Notes under the pieces: model-generated
Seen by the model: the letters and a program-made list of their open reading frames with translations, nothing else
Told to the model about the DNA's origin: nothing
The model's database searches: none
Source of the DNA: Geotalea uraniireducens Rf4
Lineage (GTDB): Bacteria; Desulfobacterota; Desulfuromonadia; Geobacterales; Geobacteraceae
DNA length: 32,000 nt
Assembly: GCF_000016745.1 (NCBI RefSeq)
Contig: NC_009483.1
Span: 3,660,001-3,692,000 of the forward strand
Direction of reading: 5' to 3'
Shown here: positions 1-27,325 of the stretch, piece by piece
Layout of the letters: each line of letters starts with the position of its first letter
Numbering within the stretch: position 1 is the stretch's first letter
Made by a program: the position numbers and the translations under genes

Positions 1-680
1 GTCTTCAGTACGAGCACGCCTGCCCCCTCTCCCAATACGGCTCCGGCAGAGCGCCGATCAAAGAGATGAAAGTGCGGTTCCGGGCTCAAAATGTTTCTTT
101 GCTGAAAGATCCGGTGGTATCCGTCCGTGTTCAGGAGACTCACTCCTCCCACCAAGGCCGAATCTATATCCCCACTGTGCAAGGCCTGAATCCCCATATT
201 CATTGCCAGTAGCGCTGAAGAACAGGCGGTATCTATCACCACGCTGGGGCCCCGGAGATCGAAAAAATGAGAAATGTTGGCTGCCATGAAGTTCTGCCCA
301 ACCAGTGTCGGGTTTCGGGCTTTCTCCAAGACGGCGAGGTCGGGTCGGTGTTGACTTCGGGCGCCCACGTAAACCCCTACCGAGGTTCCTTTTATTTCCC
401 GAGGCGCATATCCGGCGTGGCACCATGCCTTGAGGGTTTCTTCCAATATGGCCAAGGCTTGCGGGTCCATTGCCTTGGCATCTTCTTCGGGGATTAAAAA
501 AAACGACGGGTCGAAACAGGTGATATCGTCGAGCAGTCCCGCATGGAAAGCATTCGAATACCCCCAACGCTCCCGAGGCACCGCCCGTATCGCGGAGCGT
601 CCTTGTGATAGCAAGCTCCAGTATTGATCGAGCGTTTCCGCTCCGGGAAAACGGCAGGACAGTCCGATGACCGCGATATC
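1..680 (-). other. Ketosynthase domain 2 of the PKS (truncated by the window edge)
   Basis: DIAVIGLSCRFPGAETLDQYW ... VVIDTACSSALLAMNMG in the same frame after the ACP and a Pro/Ala-rich linker. Confidence 0.85.
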
Positions 681-3600
681 CTGGGAAACCGTGCCCCTCG
701 TGTGCTCGGACCGTGGTTGTGATTCGTGCGTCGGAGCATGAGTCAATGGCACCAGGGGGGGGGCAGGGGCTGCATCGCGGTTCGTGCGATCGGTGTTTTG
801 TTCAGGCGCCATCCCCAAAGCCGAGGTTAACCTTTCCGAATAGGCGCCCGCGAGCCACACGCCGAGCGCCCCGAGGCTCGAATGCTCGAGGAGTAACGAA
901 GGGTCCAGATTATCTTCCGTCAATCGGTTGATCTGCCTCAAGATCTGGGCCAGTAAAATCGAATCGGCACCGTAGTCCTGAAATGGTGTGTCGAGATCGA
1001 GTTTCGCGGGATCGGCCCTCAATTCTTTAGCGAACAGCTCGATCAGCCATGCCTGGATCGTCTTTATGACGCCTTCACCGGGAGTTGAGCTTTCTGCAGG
1101 GGCCGGAGCTGAGAGGATCTTTTCCTGGACGGTTTTTTGAACGGCCCGTCGCATCAAGGCGGGGGGATTCCATCGGCCGGGATCAACCACTGCAGGCAGA
1201 ATTACCGGACCTTGTTCCCCGGACAGGATAGCGTCCATAAGCCACAATCCCTCTTGGTCCGTATGGGCCAACAGGCCCGTCTGTTGATAGACCCTGCTCC
1301 GGATCTCTCCCATGCCTGACTCTTTCCAGCTCGGCCATTGAATGCTGACGATGGGACAGGCAGCATGCTTTGCTTCAGCGAAATAATCCATGTAGCCGTT
1401 CGCCGTGGCATAATCGCTTTGCCCCGAACCCAAAACAGGAACGATCGCGGATACCGAGGAAAAAAGCATGAAAAACTGCAAAGGCTCATTCCTTAAGTTT
1501 CGATAGAGAATATCGAGCCCGATTATTTTAGGGTCCAAAACATCTTGAATCCCTTCGATGGATTTTCGGATGAACGCCGGATTTTCAAAATCGGCGAACC
1601 CCGCGCAGTGGATAACGCCTCCAACAGGCCCCATGCTGTCCTTGATCTGGCGAAGGTTTTTCTGTACGCAGCGCTCATCGGTCAACGGAAGAGAGATCGC
1701 ACAGACCTGCGCTCCCCGGCGCTCCAGTTCCTGTATGGCTTGAATTTTTTCGGAGATGCCCCCTTGTCGGCCCTTATAGGAGTCCCACTCTTCCCGGGAC
1801 GGCAGTGGCTCCCGCCCGGTCAACACCAGACGTTTGACGCCGTAGTTTTCCAGGAAATGCCGCGCGCATAGATACCCCAGACCGCGCGTCCCTCCCGTAA
1901 TCCACAGGACATGATTCTCGGGGAAAATGATTTTCCTGCCGCCTTGAACCGAATGCTCCACGAGGCCGGCGCGGTATCGATTTCCTTTTCTGTAACAAAT
2001 TTCCGGATCCTCGCAATCCGCAGTCAGCTCGGTAGCGATCTGCTCCGCCAGTGTTCCATCATCCGAGCTCGGATCAGCGTCCAAATGCCTCGACCTGACG
2101 TGACTGTATTCGCTTTGCAGCATCCGGTACAGCCCGGCTCGCGGGGCTCCGCTCAGGTTGATCTCCGCGTTGTCATGCGACTCAAGCCCCTTGGTGACAC
2201 AAAGCAGCATCAGACCATCACGGTGCCCGGAGTCTATCAAGCGTTGCAGCCAGGAAATCCAGGTTGTCGTCTCAACTATCTCCCTGCCGCATCCCGCCAG
2301 ATCCACGCATGCGTCATACCGCCTCCAGTGCCGGTCTGGCTGTTGAAGGTCGGCCTTCAGATCGTGAAGATCCAAAAGCCAGCTCTTTGGGAAATAGTCA
2401 GAAATCCTGTTGGCGAGACATCTCGTCTCTTGCGTCACCAAGATTGCGACCGCTCGATCGGATTGTCTCCCAGCCGGAAGCTGACAAAGCTCCCACTGTT
2501 TTTTCAGAAAGAGCGCGAGGCGTCCCGGGTCTTGCTCTTCAACTGCCTGTTTAATAGGGTTGATCTCATCAATGCCGGGTTGCAGCCAATGGCGCTGTCG
2601 GGCGAAGGGATACGTGGGCAGGTTGATCCGGGGCATTGCAGCGTTATCGGGATAGAGCACCTGCCAATCCAGGTCATAACCCTTTGCATACAATTCGGAC
2701 AGCGTCTGCATTTTGCTTTTGTATTCCTGAACCTTTACCCTTTTAGATTGCGCGAGCTCCTTCAGAATCGCATTCCCTGACTCACCAACGCTGGGCTGCA
2801 ATTCCCCCTTTACTTTACCTTCAGGACCTCCAAGGGACATCTCGCTCAGTCCGGTTTCCACCGCTTCTTGCAGTTTCCCTTGAAGTTCTTGAATGTCGCC
2901 GGCCAGAAATGCCGCTCTCACTCCAAAGTGTTCTCTTCTTAACAGCAAGGTTGCACTGATCTCAGCTAGATTGTTTGTATCCCCTTCTCTATCGAGCCAG
3001 GAAGCCAGGTCCCGCTCTCTTTGCAGCAAGGCTTCTTTGGTTCGAGCCGACAAACAGATCAAATAGCAGGGCCTCTTTTTGGCGAGAGGTCTTGCGACAA
3101 GCGGCGCCTCTTCAAGCACCACGTGCGCATTCGTGCCTCCAAAGCCGAACCCACTGACTCCTGCGCGTCTCGGGAGAGGCTGATTATCTGTCCCTTTGAG
3201 CTGCTTCCATTCCTGGAAACGGTCCACGATATAAAAGGGAGAATCCTCAATCTCTATACGATGGTTTAGCTTTTTAAAACTCTGAAGTCCCGGGAGCTGT
3301 TTATGCTTTAAAGACAACAGGACCTTGATCACGCCTGCGATTCCGGCGGCGGACTCTGAATGTCCGATGTTGCTCTTCAGAGATCCTATACCGCAATATG
3401 TCCTTGCGACCTTTTCACCCGGCTTGCTATCAAGAGATGAAAACGCCCTGACGAGGCCCTTAAATTCCAGGGGGTCTCCCTTTGGCGTCCCAGTGCCGTG
3501 GGCCTCTATATAGCTTATGTTCCCGGGAGCAGTTCCCGCTCGTCTGTGGGCTTCTACAATGACCTCTGCTTGAGCTTCTGGATCGGGATACGTTAAGGTG

Positions 3601-4442
3601 TGGGTTTTCCCGTTATGGTTAACTGCACTTCCCTTTAGGACACCGCAAATAGAGTCACCGTCCTCTAGTGCCTCTTTCAAAGGCTTGAGCAGAACTAGGC
3701 CCGCACCTTCACTGCGCACGTATCCGTCTGCAGCCTCGTCGAACGACTTACAGGAGCCCGTGGGAGACAACATTCCGGTTTTGGCAAAAGAGATATGTCG
3801 TGTCGGAGTCAACAAAAGACTGATTCCGCCAGCCAGAGCCATGCTGCATTCTCCCAGGCTCAAGGATTGAGCTGCTGAATGAATGGCATTAAGAGAACTC
3901 GAACAGGCTGTATCTATGGCGAGACTTGGGCCTTTTAAGTGATAGTAATGCGAAATCCGGTTGGCAATTACCGCAGCAGCGGTACCTGTGGAGTGATAGG
4001 TATCAATGGTGCGAGTAGCTTTTTCCTGCAGTTCCTTGTAGTCAAAATTAAATACGCCCAGATACACGCCAATCTTTTTCTCGGACAACTGACTAGGGCA
4101 AACACCAGCGTCTTCAAAACAAGACCAGGAGAGTTCCAACATGATTCGCTGCTGGGGATCCATGGTCTCAGCTTCTCGTGCGGAAATGCGAAAGAACTCC
4201 GCGTCAAAGGAATCAACATTCTGGAGGAAACCGCCCCATTTGCTGTTGCTTTTGTTTATTTCGGACGGGTCCCCCCAAAAGGATCTCCAATCCCAACGCT
4301 CCAGTGGAATTTCCGTGATGCCTGACCGACCTTGCTTGAGGTTATCCCAGAAGGCTTCATAATTCCCAGCGCCTGGAAACCGGCACGACATGCCGATAAT
4401 CGCTATATCCATCCCTGTGAATTCCATTTCTCCCTGCTCCAT
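1..4442 (-). CDS. Type I polyketide synthase, trans-AT architecture (KS-KR-ACP-KS...). The N-terminus is in the window; the 3' end runs past position 1
   Basis: Manual reverse-strand translation from ATG at 4442 (GAGGG RBS 6 nt upstream) is open to position 1 (~1480 aa). This explains why it is missing from the complete-ORF track. Motifs seen: DIAIIGMSCRFPGA, DTACSSSLNAIH, EAHGTGTPKGDP, NIGHSESAAG (KS), YPFARQRHW linker, ITGGTRGLG...SDYATANGYMD (KR), DYGADSILLAQI (ACP), then DIAVIGLSCRFPGA...DTACSSALLAM (second KS). No GHSxG AT domain between KS and KR. Confidence 0.92.
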   Translation of the reverse strand, partial: MEQGEMEFTGMDIAIIGMSCRFPGAGNYEAFWDNLKQGRSGITEIPLERWDWRSFWGDPSEINKSNSKWGGFLQNVDSFDAEFFRISAREAETMDPQQRIMLELSWSCFEDAGVCPSQLSEKKIGVYLGVFNFDYKELQEKATRTIDTYHSTGTAAAVIANRISHYYHLKGPSLAIDTACSSSLNAIHSAAQSLSLGECSMALAGGISLLLTPTRHISFAKTGMLSPTGSCKSFDEAADGYVRSEGAGLVLLKPLKEALEDGDSICGVLKGSAVNHNGKTHTLTYPDPEAQAEVIVEAHRRAGTAPGNISYIEAHGTGTPKGDPLEFKGLVRAFSSLDSKPGEKVARTYCGIGSLKSNIGHSESAAGIAGVIKVLLSLKHKQLPGLQSFKKLNHRIEIEDSPFYIVDRFQEWKQLKGTDNQPLPRRAGVSGFGFGGTNAHVVLEEAPLVARPLAKKRPCYLICLSARTKEALLQRERDLASWLDREGDTNNLAEISATLLLRREHFGVRAAFLAGDIQELQGKLQEAVETGLSEMSLGGPEGKVKGELQPSVGESGNAILKELAQSKRVKVQEYKSKMQTLSELYAKGYDLDWQVLYPDNAAMPRINLPTYPFARQRHWLQPGIDEINPIKQAVEEQDPGRLALFLKKQWELCQLPAGRQSDRAVAILVTQETRCLANRISDYFPKSWLLDLHDLKADLQQPDRHWRRYDACVDLAGCGREIVETTTWISWLQRLIDSGHRDGLMLLCVTKGLESHDNAEINLSGAPRAGLYRMLQSEYSHVRSRHLDADPSSDDGTLAEQIATELTADCEDPEICYRKGNRYRAGLVEHSVQGGRKIIFPENHVLWITGGTRGLGYLCARHFLENYGVKRLVLTGREPLPSREEWDSYKGRQGGISEKIQAIQELERRGAQVCAISLPLTDERCVQKNLRQIKDSMGPVGGVIHCAGFADFENPAFIRKSIEGIQDVLDPKIIGLDILYRNLRNEPLQFFMLFSSVSAIVPVLGSGQSDYATANGYMDYFAEAKHAACPIVSIQWPSWKESGMGEIRSRVYQQTGLLAHTDQEGLWLMDAILSGEQGPVILPAVVDPGRWNPPALMRRAVQKTVQEKILSAPAPAESSTPGEGVIKTIQAWLIELFAKELRADPAKLDLDTPFQDYGADSILLAQILRQINRLTEDNLDPSLLLEHSSLGALGVWLAGAYSERLTSALGMAPEQNTDRTNRDAAPAPPLVPLTHAPTHESQPRSEHTRGTVSQDIAVIGLSCRFPGAETLDQYWSLLSQGRSAIRAVPRERWGYSNAFHAGLLDDITCFDPSFFLIPEEDAKAMDPQALAILEETLKAWCHAGYAPREIKGTSVGVYVGARSQHRPDLAVLEKARNPTLVGQNFMAANISHFFDLRGPSVVIDTACSSALLAMNMGIQALHSGDIDSALVGGVSLLNTDGYHRIFQQRNILSPEPHFHLFDRRSAGAVLGEGAGVLVLK
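840..1079 (-). other. Acyl carrier protein domain of the PKS
   Basis: LDLDTPFQDYGADSILLAQILRQI. The phosphopantetheine-attachment Ser codon is at 960-962. Confidence 0.8.
1311..1910 (-). other. Ketoreductase catalytic subdomain of the PKS
   Basis: Rossmann motif VLWITGGTRGLGYL and SSVSAIV...GQSDYATAN (catalytic Tyr). An upstream GLYRMLQSEYSHVRSRHLDAD stretch resembles the KR structural subdomain. Confidence 0.8.
3105..4409 (-). other. Ketosynthase domain 1 of the PKS (catalytic Cys-His-His present)
   Basis: DTACSSS, HGTGT and NIGHSE motifs lie in one frame. The domain ends at GGTNAHVVLEE. Boundaries are approximate. Confidence 0.85.
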
Positions 4443-4773
4443 AAAATACCCTCATGTTGGTCCACTTCACCGGGTGATTACTCGGTCAAAATCCTCCAGT
4501 GTTGGCAGAGGATGAGGTTCTGAGTGAGTATTTCCGCTAATAAACAGAACTGAAATCCCTGTCGGGTTTGAGTTATTGACGCCAAAAGATGCTGGATAAA
4601 CAGCTAGCAGACGAGCTGTCAGTCACACCAAGATCAACCGTAGTACTAAATAACTACACTGAGCCGTACTAATTCGTATCTGTGTTGTAGTACTAGCTGA
4701 AATAAGTCACAGAAATCCCTATAATAATTGTAATATTATGTTAGAATTTCAGGTTATATTAAATCAATTTTAT

Positions 4774-4815
4774 AGTCTCGGCGTATGTTGTCATTAATTC
4801 GGCGAATATTGGCAA
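4774..4815. repeat. Copy A of a 42-nt conserved noncoding block, in the AT-rich region upstream of the PKS gene
   Basis: agtctcggcgtatgttgtcattaattcggcgaatattggcaa aligns without gaps to 9716-9757 with 36/42 identities. Flanking AT-rich DNA shares aattgt / aatattat strings. Confidence 0.85.
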
Positions 4816-4982
4816 CCGACCAATTCGTTCGGGCAGACGTCGTCAACTTCCCGAAGCTGCTGTTTCAGGAGCTATACAGAAGCCGCTGTTCAAGTGTTCA
4901 TTCCTCCCCATGCTGCACATTGCAGCAGTGACAGCCAATGACAGCGGTCGGATACGGGTGGGGAAGACTGGCATCGACTGCC

Positions 4983-5017
4983 CAAAAAAACAAAAGGCAG
5001 CCGGGAAGGCTGCCTTT
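4983..5017 (-). terminator. Rho-independent terminator, minus strand
   Basis: 10-bp stem aaaggcagcc/ggctgccttt with a 5-nt loop. On the minus strand it is followed by TTTTGTTTTTTT. Confidence 0.75.
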
Positions 5018-5056
5018 GAGAAGGCTACGCGAGCGTCATAAGCACGGAAGGACACC

Positions 5057-6393
5057 GGCAGAGAGGGTGTAAAAAGGTTTGTGTAAATGGTCATTAGGGG
5101 GTACACCAAGTTACCCTAAGGAGATCACATGACTATTAACACCGACGTAATCGACGATCTACTCAAACATTATAAGACCCCCGAAGAGATTCTAGGGGAA
5201 AACGGGCTGCTGAAGCAGTTGACCAAGGCTGTTCTTCAGCGGGCGCTCCAGGCTGAAATGACACTGCACCTCGGCCACGAGAAGCATGCTTCCGTTTCCG
5301 CCAAAGGTGGCAATGCACGCAATGGCTCGTCGGCAAAGACCATCAAAGGCGATTTTGGCACCATGCCGATTGAGGTCCCTCGTGACCGGGATAGCAGCTT
5401 TGAACCAGTCATCATTCCCAAAGGCCAAACCCGGTTCGCCGAGTTCGATGATAAGATTATCTCCCTGTACTCCCGCGGGCTTACCACTCGTGAGATCCAG
5501 GGACACTTGGAGGAAATCTACGGTGTTGAAGTATCCCCCGCTCTGATTTCAATAGTGACTGAAGCAGTAGCTGAAGAGGTCAAAGCTTGGCAGAACCGCC
5601 CGTTGGATGCGCTTTATCCCATCGTTTACATGGATGCCATCAGGGTCAAAGCCAGAGGCAATGGCCATGTTGTGAACAAGGCTGTCTATCTGGCCATCGG
5701 CATCAACATAGACGGTGCCAAGGAAGTTCTGGGAATGTGGGTCTCCGAAAACGAAGGAGCCAAGTTCTGGTTGCAGGTTGTGACCGAACTTAAGAACCGT
5801 GGTGTCCAAGACATCTTCATTGCCTGCGTTGACGGCCTGAAGGGGTTCCCTGAGGCCATAGAAATAGTTTATCCCAACACTCAAGTCCAACTTTGCATCG
5901 TCCATATGGTACGCAATTCCTTGAAGTTCGTTTCGTGGAAACAACGCAAAGAAGTTGCGACAGATTTGAAGGTTATCTACCAGTCAGCGACCGCTGAGCA
6001 GGCCGAAATGGAACTGACAGCATTTGAGGCAAAATGGGACAAAACACACCCGACGATCAGCCAGTCCTGGCGCCGGAACTGGGCGCAAGTTATACCATTT
6101 TTTGCCTATCCAGCTGATATACGAAAGGTTATTTACACAACCAATGCCATTGAATCACTGAATATGTCACTCAGAAAGGTGACCAAAAACCGGGGCTCGT
6201 TTCCCAATGATGAGGCAATGTTCAAGTTACTATACCTGGCGCTGAGAAACATCGCGAAGAAATGGACCCTGCCGATCAGAGACTGGAAAGCTGCCATGAA
6301 CCGCTTTTCCATTCTTTTTGAAGACAGAATGCCAAGCTATTAAAAACAGGGAACCAAAACCATTTACACAAAACTATTGACAGGCCCCCGGCA
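5057..6393 (+). mobile_element. IS256-family insertion sequence
   Basis: A single mutator-type transposase ORF is flanked by imperfect terminal inverted repeats. The core is gtaaaaaggtttgtgtaaatgg (5069-5090) versus ccatttacacaaaactattgac (6360-6381). Weaker similarity extends ~12 bp further out, so exact ends are uncertain. Confidence 0.8.
5129..6343 (+). CDS. IS256-family (mutator-type) transposase
   Basis: 404-aa ORF with AAGGAG RBS. Typical IS256 strings are present: YPIVYMDAIRVK, FIACVDGLKGFPEAI, QLCIVHMVRNS, IYTTNAIESLN. Confidence 0.95.
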   Translation: MTINTDVIDDLLKHYKTPEEILGENGLLKQLTKAVLQRALQAEMTLHLGHEKHASVSAKGGNARNGSSAKTIKGDFGTMPIEVPRDRDSSFEPVIIPKGQTRFAEFDDKIISLYSRGLTTREIQGHLEEIYGVEVSPALISIVTEAVAEEVKAWQNRPLDALYPIVYMDAIRVKARGNGHVVNKAVYLAIGINIDGAKEVLGMWVSENEGAKFWLQVVTELKNRGVQDIFIACVDGLKGFPEAIEIVYPNTQVQLCIVHMVRNSLKFVSWKQRKEVATDLKVIYQSATAEQAEMELTAFEAKWDKTHPTISQSWRRNWAQVIPFFAYPADIRKVIYTTNAIESLNMSLRKVTKNRGSFPNDEAMFKLLYLALRNIAKKWTLPIRDWKAAMNRFSILFEDRMPSY

Positions 6394-6466
6394 GATGCAC
6401 AAAACTTCGAGAGATCACGTGATTTTTTATGCAGAGGTGCTTTCGCGCCCGAATCAGCAATGGGTG

Positions 6467-6625
6467 TTATTTTTTTACGAAGTCACTTTTAACTGCCTCG
6501 CATTTCGGACATGTCCAGTAATCCGTGATTTGAGTAAAAGAAGTGTTAGGCAAGATACCAGAGTCAGTATCGCCGAGCTGAGGATTGTATAGATAGCCGC
6601 AAACAGTACAGATGTATTCGTCCAT
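6467..6625 (-). CDS. Rubredoxin (52 aa)
   Basis: Not in the ORF track because it is under 60 aa. Manual translation: MDEYICTVCGYLYNPQLGDTDSGILPNTSFTQITDYWTCPKCEAVKSDFVKK. It has both CxxCG/CPxC knuckles, a GGAGG RBS upstream and a TAA stop at 6467-6469. Confidence 0.9.
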   Translation of the reverse strand: MDEYICTVCGYLYNPQLGDTDSGILPNTSFTQITDYWTCPKCEAVKSDFVKK

Positions 6626-6679
6626 AAATAGCGCCTCCATTTATCTTTAATTCAAACGTATCAAAAAATTAACCCTAGG

Positions 6680-7816: not shown

Positions 7817-7924
7817 CTATTAACCTCCCTGAGATATAATATGGTCTCGGCCTAAGGCCTGATTCTGATCGTGCAAATTCGACAGCAGCATTTGGTATCG
7901 GATGCAAGGCTCAACAACATGGAC

Positions 7925-8938: not shown

Positions 8939-9014
8939 ATATACACGTTCTCCTGTGAGTACTGGCATTTGTTTCAGCCCATTTGAAAAAAGCTTTTCTA
9001 AAGGCTAAGCATAG

Positions 9015-9551
9015 TTAGCCTGGTGGAGCACGGCGCGTGCCATCGGCGTGGTTTGCTCTCTTTGGCCTTGATTTAGCGCTCGTGGCGAGCCATGAGTCCG
9101 CGCCCTCCCCGTAGATCGCCGAGAGCTTTTTTGAAAGAACCAGGAGCGTCGCCGTTTTGGCAAGTGCTTTCTCCTTGCGCCTCAGCTCGCGCTCAAGCTC
9201 CTATATGCGCCGATGGTCCTGTCGCGTCTGTGAGGGCTGGCCGGCTTCTCCTCGGGCGTCACCAGGGCCTGTACTCGATTTCTCCAACTCGCTTGGATAA
9301 ACACCCTGCTGCCGGCACCATGCGTTTTTTGCCGCTTCATCCATAGCCGATGTTGCGATCACTGCTTCCAAGCGCGCCGCCGCTGTCCAGGTCTTATCAC
9401 TGCTCGACATTGCGAGTGCTTCTGAGCGCCACCGCTCCAACGTGTCCGCCGAGATTCCAATCTCCCGTAATACTACTTCGACCGGAGAACTCTCCTGTGG
9501 CAGCAACCGTGCAACTGCTCGTTTCTTGAACGCTTGTGAGTATCTAGCCAA
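9015..9551 (-). pseudogene. IS3-family orfA remnant with an in-frame TAG; orfB deleted
   Basis: HTH orfA (MARYSQAFKKRAVARLL...ISADTLERWR) stops at TAG 9201-9203. The same frame continues ELERELRRKEKALAKTATLLVLSKKLSAIYGEG. A_AAA_AAG slippery heptamer at 9126-9132. No integrase-core orfB follows. Confidence 0.8.
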
Positions 9552-9715
9552 TTGACCACCTCTCTACCCCTTAGCTTACAGAGCTATCGAGGCGACAACA
9601 ATACTGACACGAGGGGAGCATGGCAGAACAGATAGATGGTATGAGCTTCAAAATAGTGCTTTGAAAGTTTACACGCATCCAATTGTGACTGAATATTATA
9701 TGAAATTAAAATGAC

Positions 9716-9757
9716 AGTCTCGGTTTATGTTGCGATTTATTCGGTGAATATTGGCAA
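9716..9757. repeat. Copy B of the 42-nt conserved noncoding block
   Basis: agtctcggtttatgttgcgatttattcggtgaatattggcaa, 36/42 identical to 4774-4815 in the same orientation. Confidence 0.85.
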
Positions 9758-9962
9758 TGCGGGTAGATGATAACTGGATTGAGCCTGGCAAAGGAGATCT
9801 ATGGCGGTACGGCGTTGCTCAAGTCAACATGTGTCAACAATCAGAGTCAGCCGCCCCTGTGCTGGTTCCCGGGAATCCGAAAGTGGTATCAGATCTAACG
9901 AAATGACAATCAAAAGCTGGATACTACCAGGCCAATCGCCCTGTTATCGGCTTCATGTACCT

Positions 9963-10763
9963 TTAGCTTAATCTAAGGCCATTTTTTACGTTTTTACGGT
10001 ATTTCGATGGAGGATAACCAACAATCTTTTTAAAGGTTTTTCCGAAATGCGTTATATCCTCATACCCCACTTCAAAAGCAACATCAGTAATAGAATAGTT
10101 CGTTTTGAGTAACACCATTGCAGTCTCGATTCGTATGTTGTTTAGGTGGTCCTGGTATGTTATTCCCATTATTTTTTTAAATATCTTGGAAAAATGATAC
10201 ATGGACATTCCGGCATGATCTGCCACAGTGCCAAGTCGTATTTTAGTCCGATAATGATCATCTATAAAGTTAAGTGCTTTTTGCATTTTGTTGCTATAGC
10301 GATTATTTGCTTCAATGTCATCAATCTCTTTTTTAATTCGGCAATTATGATACGCTATCCCATTATTTTTCTCGGCTGCTGCTGTATTCCTGCCAGGAAC
10401 TAAAGCTAGGATAATTCTCCTTAGCTCGGTAAAATCTATGGGCTTATTGACGTAGTCTCCAGCACCGTTCCGAAATGACTGCACTGCAAGTTCCTCACTA
10501 CCGCACGAGGTTGTTAAAATAACTGACACATGCGGCTTAAGCGCCTTTATTTGCCGCAAAACATCCAAGCCGGAAATGTCTGGAAGTTTGTCGTCCAAGA
10601 CAACCAAATCAATATCACCTAGATGCTTTATTGCCTCTACGGCGTCAATACCGCAGTCAACAACTTCGACCTCGAAATCATGGCCCATGATAGCCATGAA
10701 GCAGTTGGCAAATTCATTATCGTCATCAACTAATAACAGTTTATGTTTGATATTTATTTCCAT
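9963..10763 (-). CDS. Response regulator with receiver domain and AraC-type HTH output
   Basis: 266 aa. REC motifs are LLLVDDDNEF and DLVVLDDKLPDISGLDVL...YVNKP. The C-terminal AraC HTH is HFSKIFKKIMGITYQDHLNNIRIE...GYEDITHFGKTFKK. Confidence 0.9.
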   Translation of the reverse strand: MEINIKHKLLLVDDDNEFANCFMAIMGHDFEVEVVDCGIDAVEAIKHLGDIDLVVLDDKLPDISGLDVLRQIKALKPHVSVILTTSCGSEELAVQSFRNGAGDYVNKPIDFTELRRIILALVPGRNTAAAEKNNGIAYHNCRIKKEIDDIEANNRYSNKMQKALNFIDDHYRTKIRLGTVADHAGMSMYHFSKIFKKIMGITYQDHLNNIRIETAMVLLKTNYSITDVAFEVGYEDITHFGKTFKKIVGYPPSKYRKNVKNGLRLS

Positions 10764-10972
10764 CTATGGCCTGCCAGAGTTTTGTTATAACGCATCGTCG
10801 GAGGCTTGGATAGCCGCATAGGGCTGGAAGCCCTTCATCTTGGGTTTTGGCCACCGTTCCGGTCGTTCGAGGATGGGCGCCGGATGGCATCACGGAGCCG
10901 TGGGTGACCCGAAAACGTGTGGCAGCCGCTCCGTGGCAGCCGCTCCGTGGCAGCCGGCTGCGGCAATGCCAC

Positions 10973-13267
10973 TCAGCAGCGAGCCAGCGCCTCGAAACGT
11001 GCGTTCAGAAGATCCGCCGTCTCGATCATCAGTTTTTCGCCGATCTCGTCGACTTTGCGGTTGCGCCAATTCTCCAGTGGGGTCCCTTTCATCCACTGGT
11101 TGAAAGCGCCAAGCGAGGGGCCGCACTGGACCTGGTAATCGACCTCCTGTCCCGGCCTCCCCTCCAGCGCCGCCTCGGTGCTGTGCCTGAAGTACCACTT
11201 GAAGAGGAAAGCGAGTTTCTGCTTAGGGTTACGCTCCAACCTCTCCTTATCCTCGGGAGAGCGGGAGGAGAGCATCTCGCGGTAGACATCCTCGAAGCTC
11301 CGCTTGAAATATTTCTCCTCAAGCATTTTCTTGGTCTTCTGGTCGATGTCGTTTATGGAGTTGTACTGCCGGTACAGCTCGTAAAGCTTGTTGGCACGGG
11401 AAGGGAAGAAGACCCCGCGCTTCATGACCTGAACCTTGGCACCGAGTTCGAACATATCTCCGGCCGGTGCGTAAGCCGTGTCCTGCATGTTCACCCCCTG
11501 GAGCATGTCTTTCACCGCGTCGCTGGTCCTCGCCTCGACAGTGCATTGGTTGATCGAGCCGGTCAGAATGAAATCAGCTCCCATGATGAGAGCCGCAGCA
11601 GCGGCCTCGGGGGTACCGATCCCGCCGGCTGCGCCGACCCGGACCTCCTTCCGGTAACCGTACCTCTGCACCAGTTCATCGCGCAGCTTCCGAATGGTGG
11701 GAAGGAGGGCGTAGGCCACGGCCCCGTCAGTGTGCCCTCCGGAATCGGCCTCGGCGCAGAGGTCGTCTGCTACCGGTATCTCCTTCAACAGCGCCGCCTG
11801 CTCTTGAGTTATGCTCCGCTCCTGGAGCAGCTTCTCTACCACCCGCTCCGGTGCCGGCGAAAGAAACGCCTCAGCTATCTCCGGCCTCGACACCTTGGCG
11901 ATGATCCGGGTAGCACCCGTGACGGTCCCATCTCCGGAGCGCCGCAGCCCCTGAGCCCGATATCTCACGAGCGCAGGGGTAATGATAAGATAGGCAGAGG
12001 CCTCGACGACCTTCACCCCGTACTTCAGCAGGATATCGACCTTCTGATCCTCGCGGCTCGGGTCGTTGGGGCTATGGAGCAGGTTGACGCCGTACGGCTC
12101 TCCTGCGGTGAGTTTTCCCTGTATGTACTGCACCGCGGCTTCGAGTTCCTGCACCTTCGTTCCGCCGGAGCCCCAGAAACCGAGCATTCCCGCTTGGCCC
12201 AGCTTGACCACCATCTCGGGCGATGAGATCCCCCGGTACATGGAACCGGCTACGTAGGCATACCTCAGATTGTAATCCTGCCTAAAGCTCCTGTTTCCCA
12301 AGTTTGTGGCCGTGATGGCTCCCGAAAGCCCTCCCGCCTCCCTTGCTTGACTGACGACGCTGGCAGCTGGCTGCCGCGCTTTCGCCTCCTCCGGCCGGAT
12401 CACCTCCTCCTCAACGACCAGCGGTTGGGGCTGCCTCCGGATCGTCTCCACCAGGGAGCTAAGTACGTTGCCGGGGCCGATTTCCTCGAAAGTGTCTACT
12501 CCTTTCCCCATCAGGTAGCGGATCGACTCGGTCCATTTCACCGACTGGGAGATCTGCTTCACCAGGTTTGCTTTCACGTCCCCCTTGTAAGGGCGGGCCT
12601 CGACGTTCGAAATTACCGGTATCTCCAGCGGCGAGAAGGTGAATTGCTGGAGGAACGCTTCAAACTCCTTTTGCGAAGCCTTCATGTAGCGGGAATGGAA
12701 GGCCCCGCTGACGTTCAGAGGTATGTAGATGGTCCCCGCCGCCTCGAAGATTGGCGCAATGCGCAGGATCTCTTCTTTCGGCCCAGCAACCACGGTTTGC
12801 GACGGGGCGTTGATGTTGGCAATATCTATGGTCTCTATTTTGTTGCGGCGCAGGATATCCTCCACCTGGTCGGCGCTGACCCCCATCACCGCGGCCATCC
12901 CCCCTCCGGTTGCCTGGCTCATCAGTTGGCCCCGCTTTTGAACCAGCTTGAGCCCCGTCTCGAAATCGAAAGCCTTCCCGGCAAAGAGCGCGTTGTACTC
13001 CCCGAGGCTATGACCGGCAAGGTAATCCGGGCGCATTCCCGTCTCCTGCACCTTCTTCAGGTAGCTCAAGGCATTGACCACGAAAAGTGCCGGCTGGGTG
13101 AACTGGGTTTGCACCAACTGTTTGTGCCGGTCTTCAAGGCACAGGGCCTTTAGGGAATAACCGAGTATGGTGTCTGCCTTTGCAACGAGATCTGGAAACT
13201 CATCGAAGAGGGTGCCCCCCATCCCTTTCTGCTGCGAACCCTGCCCCGGAAAGATATGCGTAACCAT
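10973..13267 (-). CDS. Trans-acting acyltransferase fused to an FMN-type enoyl reductase (PksE/BaeE-like AT-ER)
   Basis: N-terminal FabD-like AT has FPGQGSQ, GHSLGEY, Arg at the FabD R117-equivalent position (LVQKRGQLM) and GAFHS. The C-terminal nitropropane-dioxygenase/PfaD-like ER has GGIGTPEAAAAALIMGADFILTGS. The longest ORF starts at 13285. ATG 13267 has an AAGGGGA RBS and gives MVTHIFPGQGSQ. Confidence 0.9.
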   Translation of the reverse strand: MVTHIFPGQGSQQKGMGGTLFDEFPDLVAKADTILGYSLKALCLEDRHKQLVQTQFTQPALFVVNALSYLKKVQETGMRPDYLAGHSLGEYNALFAGKAFDFETGLKLVQKRGQLMSQATGGGMAAVMGVSADQVEDILRRNKIETIDIANINAPSQTVVAGPKEEILRIAPIFEAAGTIYIPLNVSGAFHSRYMKASQKEFEAFLQQFTFSPLEIPVISNVEARPYKGDVKANLVKQISQSVKWTESIRYLMGKGVDTFEEIGPGNVLSSLVETIRRQPQPLVVEEEVIRPEEAKARQPAASVVSQAREAGGLSGAITATNLGNRSFRQDYNLRYAYVAGSMYRGISSPEMVVKLGQAGMLGFWGSGGTKVQELEAAVQYIQGKLTAGEPYGVNLLHSPNDPSREDQKVDILLKYGVKVVEASAYLIITPALVRYRAQGLRRSGDGTVTGATRIIAKVSRPEIAEAFLSPAPERVVEKLLQERSITQEQAALLKEIPVADDLCAEADSGGHTDGAVAYALLPTIRKLRDELVQRYGYRKEVRVGAAGGIGTPEAAAAALIMGADFILTGSINQCTVEARTSDAVKDMLQGVNMQDTAYAPAGDMFELGAKVQVMKRGVFFPSRANKLYELYRQYNSINDIDQKTKKMLEEKYFKRSFEDVYREMLSSRSPEDKERLERNPKQKLAFLFKWYFRHSTEAALEGRPGQEVDYQVQCGPSLGAFNQWMKGTPLENWRNRKVDEIGEKLMIETADLLNARFEALARC

Positions 13268-13284
13268 GTTAGTTCCCCTTCTCA

Positions 13285-14280
13285 TTATCTTAGTTTTTTG
13301 GTGGTAACCGAACCTATCTGCTGAAGAGATTTCATCTCCTGATGGTAGGGAGTTATCACTGCATAGGTCTCAGAGCGCGAATCGAGCGCGAGATTTCTCC
13401 TCACGAAATTGGCGAGTGTCCCTCCCGGGCCGAGGTCGAGATAAATCATAGGTCCGTCCTTTTCCAGTTCCCTGAGCGCTTCGGTAAAGAGGATCCGCTG
13501 TCTGATGACGTCCCAGAAATAATGTCCCGTAAAGTTTTCCGTGACCGTCCCGGTCAGGCAGGACGCAAAAGGGACGCTGGGAGGGAGAAACTTCTTGGCG
13601 TCAAGGTATTCCCGATAAGGCGTGGCGGCAGGATCTATCAGAGAGGAATGAAAGGCATATGATACCGGGAGAGACTGGGAAAGAATCCTCTCTTTGGCGA
13701 GAAACGCGCGGATCTCCTTGATCTTTTCGGGGAAGCCGGAAATTACGAAGTGGGTATCATAATTGATCGAGACTAGCTCCGAGTTTTGGTAAAGGATCGG
13801 CGCCGACTGGTAAAAAGCGGCGTCGTAAAGGATGGCCAGCATGGAGCCGCCACGGCAATGGTTGATCAGAGTCTTGGCCTGCACAAGGACCGCTTCTAGA
13901 AGCTCCTCGACCTCGGCGACGCCCGCCACCGCAGCCGAAGTAAATTCCCCCAAGCTGCAGCCCAAAGTGGCGCAGGGGAGCACACCGTCCTGAATCAACG
14001 CCTGGGCCAGAGCATATTCGACCATGAATATCGCGGGATGGGTATGGAGGATCTGGTTGAACGGTTCGCTGGGATCCCCCCCCGACCGGTAGAGCAGCTT
14101 CGCCAGGGACTCGCCGATGAGACCGGAGGCAACACCATCGAGCTTGTCGAACGTCTGCCGGAACCCCCTGTGCCCCTTGTAAAGCTCTTTGGCCATGCCG
14201 TAATACTGGGAACCCTGACCGGAAAACATATACACGACTGAATTTGTCACTCTACCTATCCTTACATTCTGGTTCTTCAC
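13285..14280 (-). CDS. Free-standing AT-like protein with non-canonical active-site residues (candidate acyl hydrolase or atypical AT)
   Basis: FSGQGSQ and YAFHS motifs. The nucleophile elbow reads GCSLGE rather than GHSxGE, and Gln sits 25 residues after the Ser where FabD has R117. An alternative GTG start at 14250 has an AAGGA RBS. Confidence 0.85.
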   Translation of the reverse strand: MKNQNVRIGRVTNSVVYMFSGQGSQYYGMAKELYKGHRGFRQTFDKLDGVASGLIGESLAKLLYRSGGDPSEPFNQILHTHPAIFMVEYALAQALIQDGVLPCATLGCSLGEFTSAAVAGVAEVEELLEAVLVQAKTLINHCRGGSMLAILYDAAFYQSAPILYQNSELVSINYDTHFVISGFPEKIKEIRAFLAKERILSQSLPVSYAFHSSLIDPAATPYREYLDAKKFLPPSVPFASCLTGTVTENFTGHYFWDVIRQRILFTEALRELEKDGPMIYLDLGPGGTLANFVRRNLALDSRSETYAVITPYHQEMKSLQQIGSVTTKKLR

Positions 14281-14285
14281 TGAGA

Positions 14286-15131
14286 TTACGATACGTCGTC
14301 GGTGAACAGTCCCTTAAAAATCTTTTGAACGTCGATTTCTATTTCCGTTCTTTTGGGGCAGGTTAGAGAAACAAAGAAATCGGCCATCTTAAATGAAATA
14401 GACTTGTATTGAGAAAAGTTTGAGAAAGTGGATTCTATTAAACCGCCACGTGCTGAGACTCTCGATATCTCGAACACGCTGAAAGGCGTCATCAGTCCGG
14501 TTCTGAGCGATTTCGATAGCGATTCTTTAATGGTCCACGCCATAGTCAAAATGGAGTTGTAATCTAATGCTGACCATTCGTTGAGCGTGTCTAACTCCTT
14601 ACGCGTCATCTCTTTTTCGATAACTTTCGCTTTGGTTGCATCCACCCTCTCTATGTCAATCCCCATCTGGTGGGCAGAAGGAAAGACCAGAGCGGCACCG
14701 ATCTCCGATGCATGCGAGATGCTTATTTCCAGCCGTTCCCCTTGTGTCGAACTGTTACTGATTAGGGGATTATTAAATACACCGTAGTGTATTCGGATAT
14801 CTTCTGGTTTTTCGTTGGACACCAAAGACACTGCCTTTTTCGCCGCGTACCTCCCGATGAGAAAACTCTGTTTCCGCTTCTCGGAGCTCACCCCCGCGTA
14901 ATAGGCGAACTCTTCGCTTGTCAACAGGGAGGCAACGAGACGCTCCGAAGGCAACAAAGGGCAGCGGCACAAACATAGGGCCCCCTGGTTCAGACTCTCC
15001 GGACGACGCAGCCACAACCGAGCGCTATAGGCGCGACACCACCCCCTTGGGGAAAAAACCTCGTGTTGTTGAATCAGCCGCTCCAATGGATGCGATGCTT
15101 CGGTGCTTTTGGCAACCACTTTATCTCCCAT
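14286..15131 (-). CDS. Sfp-type 4'-phosphopantetheinyl transferase
   Basis: ISISHASEIGAALVF, MGIDIERV and WTIKESLSKS motifs. The longest ORF (to 15263) overlaps the upstream gene. ATG 15131 lies 17 nt after that gene's stop. The start is uncertain because there is no clear RBS. Confidence 0.8.
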   Translation of the reverse strand: MGDKVVAKSTEASHPLERLIQQHEVFSPRGWCRAYSARLWLRRPESLNQGALCLCRCPLLPSERLVASLLTSEEFAYYAGVSSEKRKQSFLIGRYAAKKAVSLVSNEKPEDIRIHYGVFNNPLISNSSTQGERLEISISHASEIGAALVFPSAHQMGIDIERVDATKAKVIEKEMTRKELDTLNEWSALDYNSILTMAWTIKESLSKSLRTGLMTPFSVFEISRVSARGGLIESTFSNFSQYKSISFKMADFFVSLTCPKRTEIEIDVQKIFKGLFTDDVS

Positions 15132-15148
15132 GGGGGCAGCAAGCTGTG

Positions 15149-15850
15149 TCACTTGAATGCGAAGGAGTTGGTCTGTCCTTTGCGCATCCGAAAATCGACG
15201 AATTGTCTTTTGCTCTCTAGGTGGAAATAGATGTTGTGCTCCATGACCGAAGCGAGGCTGCAACCGGGAGCGCGCCCATAACAGTGACCCGGAAAGACAG
15301 AAACGTGCGGCTCGACCGTCCGCTTTATCCTCTGAATGCTCTCAAACATCCCCGACGCAGATCCCCCCTCTGTGGTACATATGCCGCACCCCTCGACAAA
15401 TACGGTGTCTCCCGTGAACAGGCTGTGCGACAGCAGATAACACATGCTGCCGGTGGTATGGCCCGGGGTCAGGAGACAGTTGATTAACGTCTCTCCCAGC
15501 CGTATCTGATCGAGATGCTCTGCGGCGAAGAGGTTGTCGCAGGAGAACTGGTAGTAATCCCTTTCCTGCCGGGAGAGTATCACCTTCGGGTCGTACTCTC
15601 GGACCAACGGGGCCACCAGATTGACATGGTCGTAATGGGAGTGGGTCAGCAGTATCATCGTTGGTCTCGCGCCCATCTCTTGCAACTTCCCCTGTAACGC
15701 CTCCAGATCCCAGGCCGGATCGACGATCGCCGCCTCGCCGGAAAAACGGTCCAAGATGATGTAGCAGTAGTTGATCATGAACTGATAACAGATCCTGAGA
15801 GGGAATACCTGGTACCCCTGAATATCGGTACGACACCCTGATGAAGTCAT
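15149..15850 (-). CDS. Metallo-beta-lactamase fold hydrolase (glyoxalase II-like, PksB/BaeB-like)
   Basis: 233 aa with AAGGGG RBS. The LLTHSHYDHV (HxHxDH) motif is present, plus TPGHTTGS and later His/Asp ligands. Confidence 0.85.
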   Translation of the reverse strand: MTSSGCRTDIQGYQVFPLRICYQFMINYCYIILDRFSGEAAIVDPAWDLEALQGKLQEMGARPTMILLTHSHYDHVNLVAPLVREYDPKVILSRQERDYYQFSCDNLFAAEHLDQIRLGETLINCLLTPGHTTGSMCYLLSHSLFTGDTVFVEGCGICTTEGGSASGMFESIQRIKRTVEPHVSVFPGHCYGRAPGCSLASVMEHNIYFHLESKRQFVDFRMRKGQTNSFAFK

Positions 15851-15916
15851 AGCCCCTTACGTTGCATCGGCGGGACGGCAATTCGCCGAAGATCTACCGC
15901 CGAGGCGGCACGCCCT

Positions 15917-16174
15917 TTAGATCCTTTTCAGGTGCTCAAGCAAGTAATCATCGTACAGCTCGGGCCTTGGACAATTCTGCAAGGGTCTCGCAACTTTCTG
16001 TCCCTGTTCATTCCGCACCATCACAGTCTTGGCGCCGAGATCACAGCCGGAATCGGAGGTAGCGGCCAAGCAGCCTTCGCAACCGGGCCACATGATCAAC
16101 TCGGCTAGGGCGTTGGTCACACTCTGGCCAGAAGGCGCCGTAAAGCTACCCTTCATTTCTTTTGTCATGGACAC
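15917..16174 (-). CDS. Small hypothetical protein (85 aa) with four Cys; first gene of the trans-acting PKS operon
   Basis: GGAGG RBS 5 nt before the ATG. The gene shares strand with the MBL gene and lies 66 nt upstream of it. Sequence includes WPGCEGCLAATSDSGCDLG...QNCP. I recognise no family. Confidence 0.55.
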   Translation of the reverse strand: MSMTKEMKGSFTAPSGQSVTNALAELIMWPGCEGCLAATSDSGCDLGAKTVMVRNEQGQKVARPLQNCPRPELYDDYLLEHLKRI

Positions 16175-16201: not shown

Positions 16202-16738
16202 TCATAGTTTCAGCGGTGCAAGTTTCTGGTTCTGGCGCCTGTCGAAGCGGCCGTCGCGGCTATAGCCGAACCGACGAAAGTCGTCCTCGACGAGCGAGCG
16301 GTCTCCGTCGAACCAAGTCGAGGTGATGTCGTAAAAGACGAGGTCCCCCTCGGGCCTGTCCCGGTCACGAAACGCCTTGGCGAGCAGAGGCTCCGGCCAG
16401 CTCTCTGCAGAATCCGTCCGATCCCGATGCCGGCTATTGCGGCCACAAGGGGAAGGGATACCAGATACAGTCATGGAGACGTATTCCCCGGACAAGAACC
16501 AGCCGAATCTGATTACGCATGTCAAGGTCGAGGCCGCTCGCGAGAGCGAGGCCCAGGCCATTTTCACGCTACTCCTAATTGCTCCTATCAATGGTGATAG
16601 TGACTGTGCAGCTACCTTTTTTCTTCTCGATATTGGCGCAGTCTCTCGACGAATCCATCCTGTTATCGGCTTTCGGTTTATGAAAGAATCAAGAGCGGCA
16701 CAGTATCCGCCGGAATGAACGTCGAGGCGTGGCCTCAA
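16202..16738 (-). pseudogene. IS1634/IS4-like transposase remnant
   Basis: The C-terminal part of the ORF reads DLVFYDITSTWFDGDRSLVEDDFRRFGYSRDGRFDRRQ. This matches the conserved YDxTSxYFEG...GYSRDxRxDxxQ block near the N-terminus of IS1634-type transposases. The rest is Arg/Ser-rich and looks frameshifted, and no downstream DDE domain is present. Confidence 0.55.
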
Positions 16739-19280: not shown

Positions 19281-19570
19281 CGGCCTCCCGGAAGTTCCCA
19301 CTCAATGTGCCAATGATCAGCGCCTCTCTGCAGCGGAGATAGGGGCGTTACCGGTGAAGTGCGTCCTGTGCTCGGCGAAGCCGCCGTGAAAGGAGCTGGT
19401 GACGGCAACAATTGGCGCATCTCGGCATCAAATATCGCCGATCCGGGCTCTATGCAGGATGCCGCGACGGCAAGCTCCCCCCTCAACTCCTCTCCACAGC
19501 AGTAGCCTGTTGAACCATTCCCCATATAGAAAGAACGGTGCCAGCCAGGGCCGGGCTTCTTGAACAATGA

Positions 19571-19599: not shown

Positions 19600-19648
19600 C
19601 CTTAATCGTTGGATGGTGAGTACGTAGTATGCAGTAAACAAGAAAGTA

Positions 19649-19668: not shown

Positions 19669-19720
19669 GATATTAATTGTATTTTATTTTACCCTCCAGC
19701 GAACCGTAGGGGGGGTAAGT

Positions 19721-27250: not shown

Positions 27251-27325
<75 letters not shown>

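Follow-up and report, generated by a model that had tools for sequence, protein, structure and literature searches.

The upstream end of a probable trans-acyltransferase polyketide synthase gene cluster in Geotalea uraniireducens Rf4

A 32,000-nucleotide stretch of the Geotalea uraniireducens Rf4 genome (contig NC_009483.1, positions 3,660,001 to 3,692,000; hereafter the window) very probably holds the upstream end of a multi-protein trans-acyltransferase (trans-AT) polyketide synthase (PKS) gene cluster, in a mobile-element-rich stretch to the left of a tRNA-Gly gene. At the left edge of the window a PKS gene (PKS1), read from 4442 to 1 on the minus strand, encodes the domain order ketosynthase (KS)-ketoreductase (KR)-acyl carrier protein (ACP)-KS, and Pfam confirms that no AT stands in line with them. 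A separate operon on the same strand encodes enzymes that would serve such a synthase in trans. Both elements had been described in an earlier note on the window, drawn from the sequence letters, and translation together with Pfam searches bears that description out.

PKS1 is 100% identical to the 1717-aa G. uraniireducens protein ABQ27263.1 (P0001). Nine more proteins of the window match GenBank or RefSeq entries of the species exactly, most of them ABQ27266-ABQ27276 of strain Rf4, and the short-read assemblies SRR9436595 and SRR9436596 cover the window at 100% identity. The host belongs to the Geobacteraceae within the Thermodesulfobacteriota. The cluster is an orphan, an ordinary representative of a well-understood enzyme class in a public genome, and genome-mining surveys have probably flagged it already. 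An orphan trans-AT PKS of Geobacter uraniumreducens is reportedly listed by Nguyen and colleagues in a 2008 article in Nat Biotechnol. Literature searches turned up no paper characterizing the Rf4 cluster; one survey lists a luxR-linked biosynthetic gene cluster in G. uraniireducens Rf4 (PMC5872303), and the supplements of this survey and of PMC7930024, as examined, do not name the Rf4 cluster. The earlier suggestion that the locus may be undescribed thus holds for its product but not for its sequence, which is public (ABQ272xx); PMC7930024 mentions a trans-AT PKS in ‘Geobacter’. What could be new here is limited to the product and a few enzymological oddities; the cluster class itself is known.

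The synthase proteins

The window carries the 5′ 4.4 kb of PKS1 (1..4442, minus strand) as an open frame of 1480 codons that runs off its edge. Pfam places a first KS (KS1; nt 3282-4409, aa 12-387) and its flanking linker, a C-terminal extension of the CurL/RhiE type (nt 2856-3266, aa 393-529), followed by a KR whose structural and catalytic parts span nt 1320-2525 (Pfam KR, aa 847-1041), an ACP (nt 864-1049, aa 1132-1193) and the start of a second KS (KS2; nt 1-677), seen as the KS N-terminal domain. The window part of PKS1 has no Pfam match to Acyl_transf_1. As first described, PKS1 starts directly with a KS and has no loading module. An AT or dehydratase (DH) might have been hidden at aa 445-835, and there Pfam at E ≤ 5 gives only the CurL/RhiE-type KS linker. 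PDB searches match aa ~453-621 (query 9-177) to the flanking subdomain of the trans-AT KS structures PksJ 4na1 and PksL 5e5n, and aa ~640-832 (query 196-388) to the N-terminal part of the PksJ KR structure 5ktk (E 3.7e-53). Linker, flanking subdomain and the N-terminal part of the KR account for the stretch, and both AT and DH are absent from it.

The motifs of these domains indicate how they would work. KS1 carries DTACSS, EAHGTGT and SNIGH, so that the Cys-His-His set for elongation is present, and ACP1 carries GADSIL with the phosphopantetheine-attachment Ser. In KS2 the motifs read DTACSS, EANGSGT and PNIGH, with the His of HGTGT replaced by Asn; by these residues, KS2 at the end of PKS1 is a predicted non-elongating KS (KS0). 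The ‘FAD’ motif of the KR, on a reading of the motif only, retains the diagnostic Asp of B-type KRs. The D-hydroxyl group that this motif had been taken as a possible sign of would accordingly be formed but is probably transient, dehydrated rather than kept, because the next KS is a KS0 with a DH-ACP after it.

The sequence read comprises the window and about 31 kb downstream, the far part from relatives only; L023, L024 and L025 are metagenomic close relatives at 95-97% nucleotide identity to Rf4. PKS2 (ABQ27262.1, 4869 aa) begins 3 nt past the PKS1 stop and agrees with the Rf4 contig in every one of its first 887 aa (found via a query padded with homologous sequence from L019). It opens with a DH carrying NHAAYGRKLLPG (HAAYGRKLLPG), followed by an ACP at aa 312-376. 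Pfam, run on ten overlapping chunks, gives the order DH-ACP-KS3-DH*-KR-ACP-KS4-DH-ACP-KS5-KR-ACP-KS0, where DH* is the module-3 domain discussed below. KS3 and KS5 have AHGTGT. With the His of KS2 lost and a DH-ACP next, the PKS1/PKS2 junction has the form of a split dehydrating bimodule, KS-KR-ACP-KS0 / DH-ACP. The pattern repeats at the other end of PKS2, whose last KS is a KS0 reading VNGGGS and is followed by a DH-ACP at the start of PKS3. PKS3 (ABQ27261.1, 1315 aa, reached via 90% clusters) is DH-ACP-KS in relatives, and PKS4, in L023 and L024, is (DH)-KR-ACP-KS-DH, at least 2555 aa long and running on past the available sequence.

At least eight KS domains are thus documented over PKS1-PKS4, and the post-KS regions match the trans-AT KS flanking subdomain. 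No AT domain (Acyl_transf_1) was found in PKS2 (ten chunks) or in PKS3 and PKS4 of a 95%-identical relative, and neither a nonribosomal peptide synthetase (NRPS) module nor a beta-branching cassette was seen in the part of the line read. The megasynthase is not cut short at the window edge, since PKS2, PKS3 and (in relatives) PKS4 continue it.

Two further features of PKS2 stand apart from its domain order. In the KS3 post-linker, at aa ~900-1000, an ACP-like stretch (NEYGVEFLQLELIKDAL) has Glu in place of the attachment Ser and looks like a degenerate carrier-protein-like insertion. In L025 (JGI 3300029959; 9617-32326), PKS2 has 7569 aa in place of 4869 aa, as though roughly its first 2700 aa had been duplicated in tandem inside the protein; either the number of modules really differs between near-identical strains or the metagenome is misassembled. 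A short-read contig break within PKS2 was considered as a possible insertion sequence (IS) and rejected, as its position is the ‘LSAKNEE’ linker, which is conserved after KS domains, and no IS end matches it.

The accessory operon

The operon (16168..10973, minus strand) consists of five genes on the same strand, separated by gaps of 17-66 nt. The five genes agree with the earlier description; its span of 16174-10973 rested on maximal open reading frame (ORF) starts, and four starts are corrected to 13267, 14250, 15119 and 16168.

The last gene holds the domain that the synthase lacks. It encodes a 764-aa fusion of AT and enoyl reductase (ER) (AT-ER; ABQ27270.1; 10973..13267, minus strand), in which Pfam finds Acyl_transf_1, FabD_helical_ins and an NMO/PfaD-type ER. 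In the PDB, the AT half scores 358 bits against PksC, 343 against PksE (5dz7) and 340 against DisD. It also passes the fabD model TIGR00128 (343 bits, cutoff 261) and has the motifs GQGSQ, GHSLGE, RG and GAFHS. The ER half scores 624 bits against DfnA (4cw5), 520 against MlnA (4z38) and 415-429 against PfaD structures (6lkc at 429), and passes the PfaD-family model TIGR02814 (668 bits, cutoff 449). Judged by these matches, the protein is a putative malonyl-type trans-AT joined to a trans-acting enoyl reductase of the PfaD/FabK type, and would be the free-standing AT of the locus.

The gene before it encodes a 321-aa PksD-type AT homologue, a putative acyl hydrolase (ABQ27271.1; 13285..14250, minus strand). 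It had been read as a second, AT-like protein; by sequence it is PksD-type instead, matching PksD (8avz) at E 3e-91 over query aa 2-313, sixty orders of magnitude beyond any true AT. The alignment with PksD shows GCSLGE and no RG of malonyl-ATs. The Arg-Gly of FabD-type ATs binds the malonyl carboxylate, and PksD-type proteins are acyl hydrolases that proofread trans-AT lines. Because this protein is PksD-type, the AT-ER holds the only genuine AT of the set. No separate PksC-type malonyl-AT is present, as the window has just two AT-homologous ORFs, the PksD-like gene and AT-ER.

Further upstream, a GTG-started gene encodes a 277-aa Sfp-type 4′-phosphopantetheinyl transferase (PPTase) with an ACPS domain (ABQ27272.1; 14286..15119, minus strand). 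It is preceded by a 233-aa metallo-beta-lactamase (MBL)-fold hydrolase, putatively PksB/SolJ-like (ABQ27273.1; 15149..15850, minus strand), with a glyoxalase-II-like fold, matching PDB 4ysb and glyoxalase II. Among NCBIfam models this hydrolase scores best against SolJ, which acts as MBL hydrolase in the solanimycin pathway, at 179 bits and so under the cutoff of 350. The first gene of the operon encodes an 83-aa Cys protein (15917..16168, minus strand) with the pattern CEGC...CDLG...CP(R/K)P, whose sole exact match is RefSeq WP_041245504.1 and which has no Pfam or NCBIfam match. Its family is rare: 1.8 billion representatives yield about 10 relatives. At L022:460-705, 133 nt upstream of an MBL gene, lies the gene for a homologue with 64% identity, which suggests that the small Cys protein and the MBL hydrolase may form a conserved pair.

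The earlier note had equated the set with the pksB/C/D/E arrangement (MBL + AT + AT + AT-ER) of the bacillaene cluster. The analogy is apt, with KS domains up to 76% identical to those of PksL and PksM, but the operon has no PksC, includes a PPTase, and its 321-aa AT homologue is of the PksD hydrolase type. In Rf4 the set would consist of a PksB-like protein, a PPTase, a PksD-like protein and a PksE/DfnA-like AT-ER.

Linkage of operon and synthase

Synteny in relatives ties the operon to the PKS genes. A scan of genome contigs with PKS1 gave relatives at 42-69% identity. Directly upstream of the PKS, homologues of the PPTase, MBL, PksD-like AT and AT-ER are present in six Paenibacillus genomes; P. 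tyrfis (L002) has them arranged as PPTase-MBL-(AT-AT-ER), with a KS-first PKS 24 nt on. The identities to Rf4 are 60% for AT-ER, 52% for the MBL, 47% for the acyl hydrolase and 34% for the PPTase. A Clostridia metagenome-assembled genome (MAG) and a JGI contig each have an AT-ER gene at 0.8-4.5 kb upstream from the PKS1 homologue. The closest operon homologues in every relative fetched adjoin trans-AT PKS genes on the upstream side. As this linkage is conserved and no other AT for the AT-less synthase is in view, operon and synthase are taken as one biosynthetic locus, which supports the original proposal.

The operon lies 6.5 kb from the synthase genes because a foreign low-GC block and a later IS256 element stand between them. 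This spacer (4443-10972, 6530 bp) has a GC content of 0.457, compared with 0.54 in the PKS and 0.49-0.59 in the operon genes. It had been described as 6.5 kb of AT-rich, IS-punctured DNA. Its size and low GC are as stated, and it contains one intact IS256 and one transposase helix-turn-helix (HTH) remnant, but the rest consists of four intact non-IS genes. The first of these, 210 nt downstream of AT-ER, encodes a response regulator with an AraC-type HTH output (ABQ27269.1; 9963..10763, minus strand; GC 0.39). It is followed by the remnant, an IS3/IS66-type transposase HTH ORF (9201..9551, minus strand; PF01527, E 1.6e-8) with weak IS3/IS66 TnpA matches; L023 and L025 have a 74-aa ORF at this position with a faint HTH_Tnp_1 match only. 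Next come an lpxD paralogue of the UDP-3-O-acylglucosamine N-acyltransferase type (ABQ27267.1; 7925..8938, minus strand; GC 0.40), which passes the lipid-A equivalog TIGR01853 (333 bits, cutoff 242), a class-V pyridoxal-phosphate enzyme of the cysteine desulfurase family (ABQ27266.1; 6680..7816, minus strand; TIGR01977, 455 bits, cutoff 377) and a 52-aa rubredoxin (6467..6625, minus strand; PF00301, E 4.5e-18).

The IS256-family element occupies 5063-6387 on the plus strand, or 5055..6395 with its target duplication. It has imperfect terminal inverted repeats and a transposase gene at 5129-6343, whose product scores 426 bits against Pfam Transposase_mut and 426 against the NCBIfam IS256 model (cutoff 150). 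The junction sequences show an 8-bp target duplication, CCGGCAGA, at 5055-5062 and 6388-6395, and the contigs of the short-read assemblies stop at 5092 and 6359, where the repeated IS has its ends. L023, L024 and L025 share the gene order of the spacer at 95-97% nucleotide identity over the shared part and have an empty site at this position, so the element is specific to Rf4. It landed between the rubredoxin stop and a hairpin at 5017..4993 and interrupts no gene.

That hairpin, on the minus strand, is the strongest terminator-like hairpin in the scanned region, and once IS256 is removed it lies downstream of the rubredoxin gene. Beyond it, an AT-rich leader (4443..5054, minus strand; GC 0.45) with promoter-like hexamers at 4794..4767 and 4762..4735 leads into PKS1. 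The block has a terminator-like hairpin of its own at its end, so that transcription of the PKS genes probably starts at a separate promoter in this leader. Just downstream of the hairpin, the leaders of the relatives contain about 90 nt (L023:4248-4340) that are missing from Rf4 (at 4950-4952), a difference that could affect the PKS promoter.

Integrity of the cluster

Several points weigh against reading the window as the upstream end of a multi-protein trans-AT cluster. The window and the ~31 kb downstream, the far part from relatives only, showed neither a loading module nor a discrete starter ACP, and no thioesterase or other domain for release. PKS2 and PKS3 of Rf4 are known as deposited proteins, with Rf4 DNA reaching only to PKS2 residue 887, and PKS4 is known from relatives only. 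Promoters and terminators were called by consensus matching, and the matches are no commoner than in shuffled sequence. The module-3 DH of PKS2 (aa ~1185-1200) reads NEPVGTGGKVLA, with the catalytic His replaced by Pro and a conserved Pro by Ala, where DHxxxGxxxLPG is present in about 40 of the 44 best-matching DH segments of other proteins and in PKS2's own second DH; the domain would have lost its DH activity or else taken on another role. A second DH is divided between two proteins. PKS3 ends ~20 residues into it (...IHPLLHENISDLAEEFRWSST, then a stop), ~20 kb left of the window edge and in the same way in Rf4, and the rest (MLKFRSCLKGNESFLKDH...) opens PKS4 after a 563-nt non-coding insert (L023:28440-29220; also in L024 and L025). 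The insert is bounded by an imperfect direct repeat of ~35 nt, 17 nt of it exact (GATCTAGCGGAGGAGTT), and has no Rfam match and no second copy in the sequences at hand.

The locus could on such grounds be an inactivated remnant, a horizontally acquired trans-AT PKS that lost its loading module and is eroding by IS activity and insertions. The destroyed motif of the module-3 DH and the DH split by 563 nt at the PKS3/PKS4 boundary, with Rf4 PKS3 ending alike, would fit this view, as would the presence of five IS families in 20 kb, but the same organization, split DH included, is found in Rf4 and the three metagenomic relatives, the 1717-aa and 4869-aa ORFs are intact, and the IS256 site is intergenic. 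Loss of a loader is suggested by the closest PKS1 homologues elsewhere, which are longer at the N-terminus (an AMP-ligase-ACP (AL-ACP) in P0008 and the L001 PKS, an extra module in P0002), and a search upstream of 4442 found no remnant of a lost AL-ACP loader. Yet starting with a KS is not in itself a sign of truncation, because the PKS1 homologues of L019 (beside alaS) and Paenibacillus L002 (directly after AT-ER) are also KS-first and have no IS nearby. Between Rf4 and L023, a relative at 95% nucleotide identity, dN/dS is 0.20 for PKS1 (1717 codons) and 0.11 for PKS2 (first 885 codons), which argues against decay. A remnant is therefore considered fairly unlikely.

In the same comparison, dS varies about nine-fold along the locus, from 0.027 in lpxD and 0.03 in KS1 to 0.24-0.25 in KS0 and the start of PKS2. 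This unevenness suggests recombination between strains within the cluster.

A different question is whether the spacer genes belong to the pathway. They might be recruited parts, with the LpxD-like N-acyltransferase priming or off-loading the chain and the response regulator controlling the cluster. The synthase has no visible loader or release domain, and LpxD-type enzymes take acyl-ACP donors. The block is intact and under purifying selection between Rf4 and L023 (dN/dS 0.05 for lpxD and 0.085 for the cysteine desulfurase gene), and it is kept in position in all four close genomes; this conservation, however, covers just strains at 95-97% identity, and the loci of distant related clusters lack homologues of the spacer genes. 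The block also differs from its flanks in GC content (0.39-0.44 versus 0.54-0.59), has its own terminator-like hairpin, and includes an LpxD that passes the lipid-A equivalog model. Recruitment is on balance distinctly improbable. The low-GC block is read as a probable older passenger, separately acquired and with its own terminator; IS256 moved in later and in Rf4 only.

Predicted assembly line and product

Taken as a trans-AT cluster, the locus allows a sequence of steps to be proposed. The Sfp-type PPTase, from its family membership, would convert the ACPs of the synthase to the holo form. The AT half of AT-ER would load malonyl units in trans onto these ACPs, its ER half would reduce selected enoyl intermediates in trans, and the PksD-type homologue may hydrolyse stalled or aberrant acyl-ACPs. 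Module 1 of PKS1 (KS-KR-ACP) would extend the chain and reduce it, giving a beta-hydroxyacyl intermediate. The closing KS0 of PKS1 would merely hand the chain to the opening DH-ACP of PKS2, where dehydration would occur. The PKS1/PKS2 junction would in this way act as a split ‘dehydrating bimodule’, comparable to the PksJ/PksL junction of the bacillaene synthase.

As predicted from its domains, the line is a mosaic of bacillaene-like, polyene-forming modules, and its module order implies that the product should be a largely unsaturated, bacillaene-like reduced polyketide. The most far-reaching form of this proposal is a functional trans-AT synthase, KS-first and without a loader, that produces a polyene like bacillaene in a strictly anaerobic metal reducer, is linked to the neighbouring LuxI/LuxR pair, tolerates a split DH and is perhaps primed or released by the LpxD-like enzyme; as a whole, it must be regarded as quite unlikely.

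A glutarimide-type product has also to be weighed, as glutarimide trans-AT PKSs have been predicted in Geobacter (Helfrich et al. 2021, PMC7930024), and the Rf4 cluster could be the one meant. Glutarimide lines are KS-first (KS-DH-KR-ACP-KS-B-ACP), with a discrete ACP and an asparagine-synthetase-like amidotransferase (PMC10574677). The Rf4 line is likewise KS-first and would form an enoyl intermediate before a KS and a His-less DH-like domain, but this domain is followed by a KR, and the KS before it shares 76% identity with the first, non-branching KS of PksL. Neither an asparagine-synthetase-like amidotransferase nor a free-standing ACP was found in the 32-kb window or the downstream sequence seen, nor was any branching module that convinces, and the supplements of PMC7930024, as examined, do not name the strain. 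The identification is very doubtful.

That the operon serves another pathway, for example the pfa-like ‘secondary lipid’ cluster of Type I reported elsewhere in the Rf4 genome (PMC3098273), and stands near the PKS by chance is hardly credible, for although its ER half passes TIGR02814 (668 bits) and scores 415-429 bits against PfaD structures, and 6.5 kb with a terminator-like hairpin lie between operon and PKS, the ER gives higher scores with the trans-AT enzymes DfnA (624 bits) and MlnA (520 bits), forms one protein with an AT like PksC, PksE and DisD, has PksD-like and PksB-like neighbours, and has homologous sets in Paenibacillus, the Clostridia MAG and the JGI contig that all lie beside trans-AT PKS genes, while the PKS has no AT of its own and no other in view, and no PfaA-type (KS-malonyl-AT-tandem ACP-KR) or PfaC-type (KS-chain length factor-FabA DHs) architecture is present in the window or the downstream PKS genes.

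Genomic surroundings and significance

To the right of the operon, the window is rich in mobile elements. Directly upstream of the operon lies a fragment of an IS1634-family transposase gene (16202..16561, minus strand; NF033559, E 1.5e-8, profile positions 111-166 of 483), followed by an IS91-family unit of a tyrosine recombinase and a Y2 transposase (17311..19280, plus strand; GC 0.63). A group-II-intron maturase fragment (21907-22236), an IS1595, a truncated IS110 and a ParM-like actin gene also lie left of the tRNA-Gly(CCC) gene (27251..27325, minus strand), the only Rfam match in the window. To the right of this tRNA gene are cca, flgM, a HAD phosphatase gene, guaA and guaB; to its left are the mobile elements and the PKS locus. 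The run of mobile elements at 16202-27325 and the tRNA suggest a tRNA-anchored genomic island, of which tRNA-Gly(CCC) is the probable boundary.

Among these elements is a pair of quorum-sensing genes. A LuxI-type acyl-homoserine lactone (AHL) synthase gene (ABQ27276.1; 19721-20470, plus strand) and a LuxR-type regulator gene (21158..20391, minus strand) are convergent, overlap by ~80 nt and lie 3.5 kb upstream of the operon, with the IS91 unit and the IS1634 fragment in between. LuxI homologues of the relatives share contigs with the operon genes. To our knowledge, AHL signalling in the Geobacteraceae has been little studied, and the same is true of their secondary metabolites, which are almost unstudied in a family known for metal reduction and electricity generation.

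Strain Rf4 was isolated from a subsurface uranium bioremediation site, and a quorum-sensing-linked polyene from Geotalea, if real, would give a chemical-ecology side to the communities of such sites. For PKS enzymology, the locus provides natural experiments in the form of a KS-first line, a DH with a destroyed motif, a DH divided between two proteins and a relative whose PKS2 is 2700 aa longer. The general understanding of trans-AT PKSs is unchanged by it, and the spacer is nothing more unusual than foreign genes with an IS lodged in a gene cluster.

Related and characterized systems

The comparison with PUFA or secondary-lipid synthases (PfaA-D) is confined to the ER, which belongs to the same family (TIGR02814; 6lkc, 429 bits); in Rf4, the ER shares one protein with a trans-AT and has PksB- and PksD-like genes around it, with no PfaA- or PfaC-type proteins. 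The difficidin and macrolactin enzymes DfnA and MlnA are the best matches to the Rf4 ER half (4cw5, 624 bits; 4z38, 520 bits), a comparison that covers the accessory enzyme only.

Two uncharacterized loci, JGI 3300069939 (L020/L021) and the Clostridia MAG CALGKJ010000008.1 (L001), share with Rf4 an upstream AT-ER and a PKS1 homologue with KS-KR-ACP-KS0, which in the JGI contig is 51% identical to that of Rf4. The second PKS of the JGI contig is of similar size (4860 aa), colinear and 60% identical over the first ~900 aa. Unlike Rf4, both have an N-terminal AMP-ligase-ACP loader on PKS1, and no MBL, PPTase or PksD genes are in view in them. Where Rf4 has its spacer genes, the JGI contig has genes for a carbamoyltransferase, a chorismate-lyase-like protein and B12/radical-SAM proteins, and the Clostridia MAG has one for a methyltransferase.

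The orphan, uncharacterized clusters of Paenibacillus tyrfis, P. elgii, P. tianmuensis and P. xylanilyticus (L002-L005, L007, L010) have the same accessory set, at 34-60% identity, and a KS-first PKS with a KS-KR-ACP-KS block that is 54-55% identical to PKS1. They differ in the order PPTase-MBL (MBL-PPTase in Rf4), in the fusion of two AT homologues with the ER in one protein of 1133 aa, in the mere 24 nt from this fusion to the PKS, and in ~1700 aa of extra modules before the matching block.

Among characterized systems, the comparison centres on bacillaene (pksB-S of Bacillus subtilis, baeB-S of B. velezensis). Rf4 differs from it in having no separate PksC, in the PPTase and small Cys protein added to the operon, in one degenerate and one split DH, in its Gram-negative, anaerobic host and in the 6.5-kb foreign block between operon and synthase; NRPS modules, an AL-ACP loader and the hydroxymethylglutaryl (HMG) beta-branching cassette are not found in the part of Rf4 seen. 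In bacillaene, likewise, genes for an MBL, a PksD hydrolase and an AT-ER (PksE) lie upstream of AT-less megasynthases, and split dehydrating bimodules of the form KS-KR-ACP-KS0 / DH-ACP are common to both. PKS1 can be aligned over its whole length, with 48.5% identity, to a Bacillus protein of 1726 aa (PksJ by the name given at its source), and the opening of PKS2 resembles PksL, with 58% identity over 930 aa. When single domains are compared by BLAST within the retrieved proteins, KS3 shares 76% identity with the first KS of B. subtilis PksL, KS5 74% with a PksL KS, KS4 68% with the last KS of PksM, and KS2, the KS0, 65% with the terminal KS of a PksL homologue.

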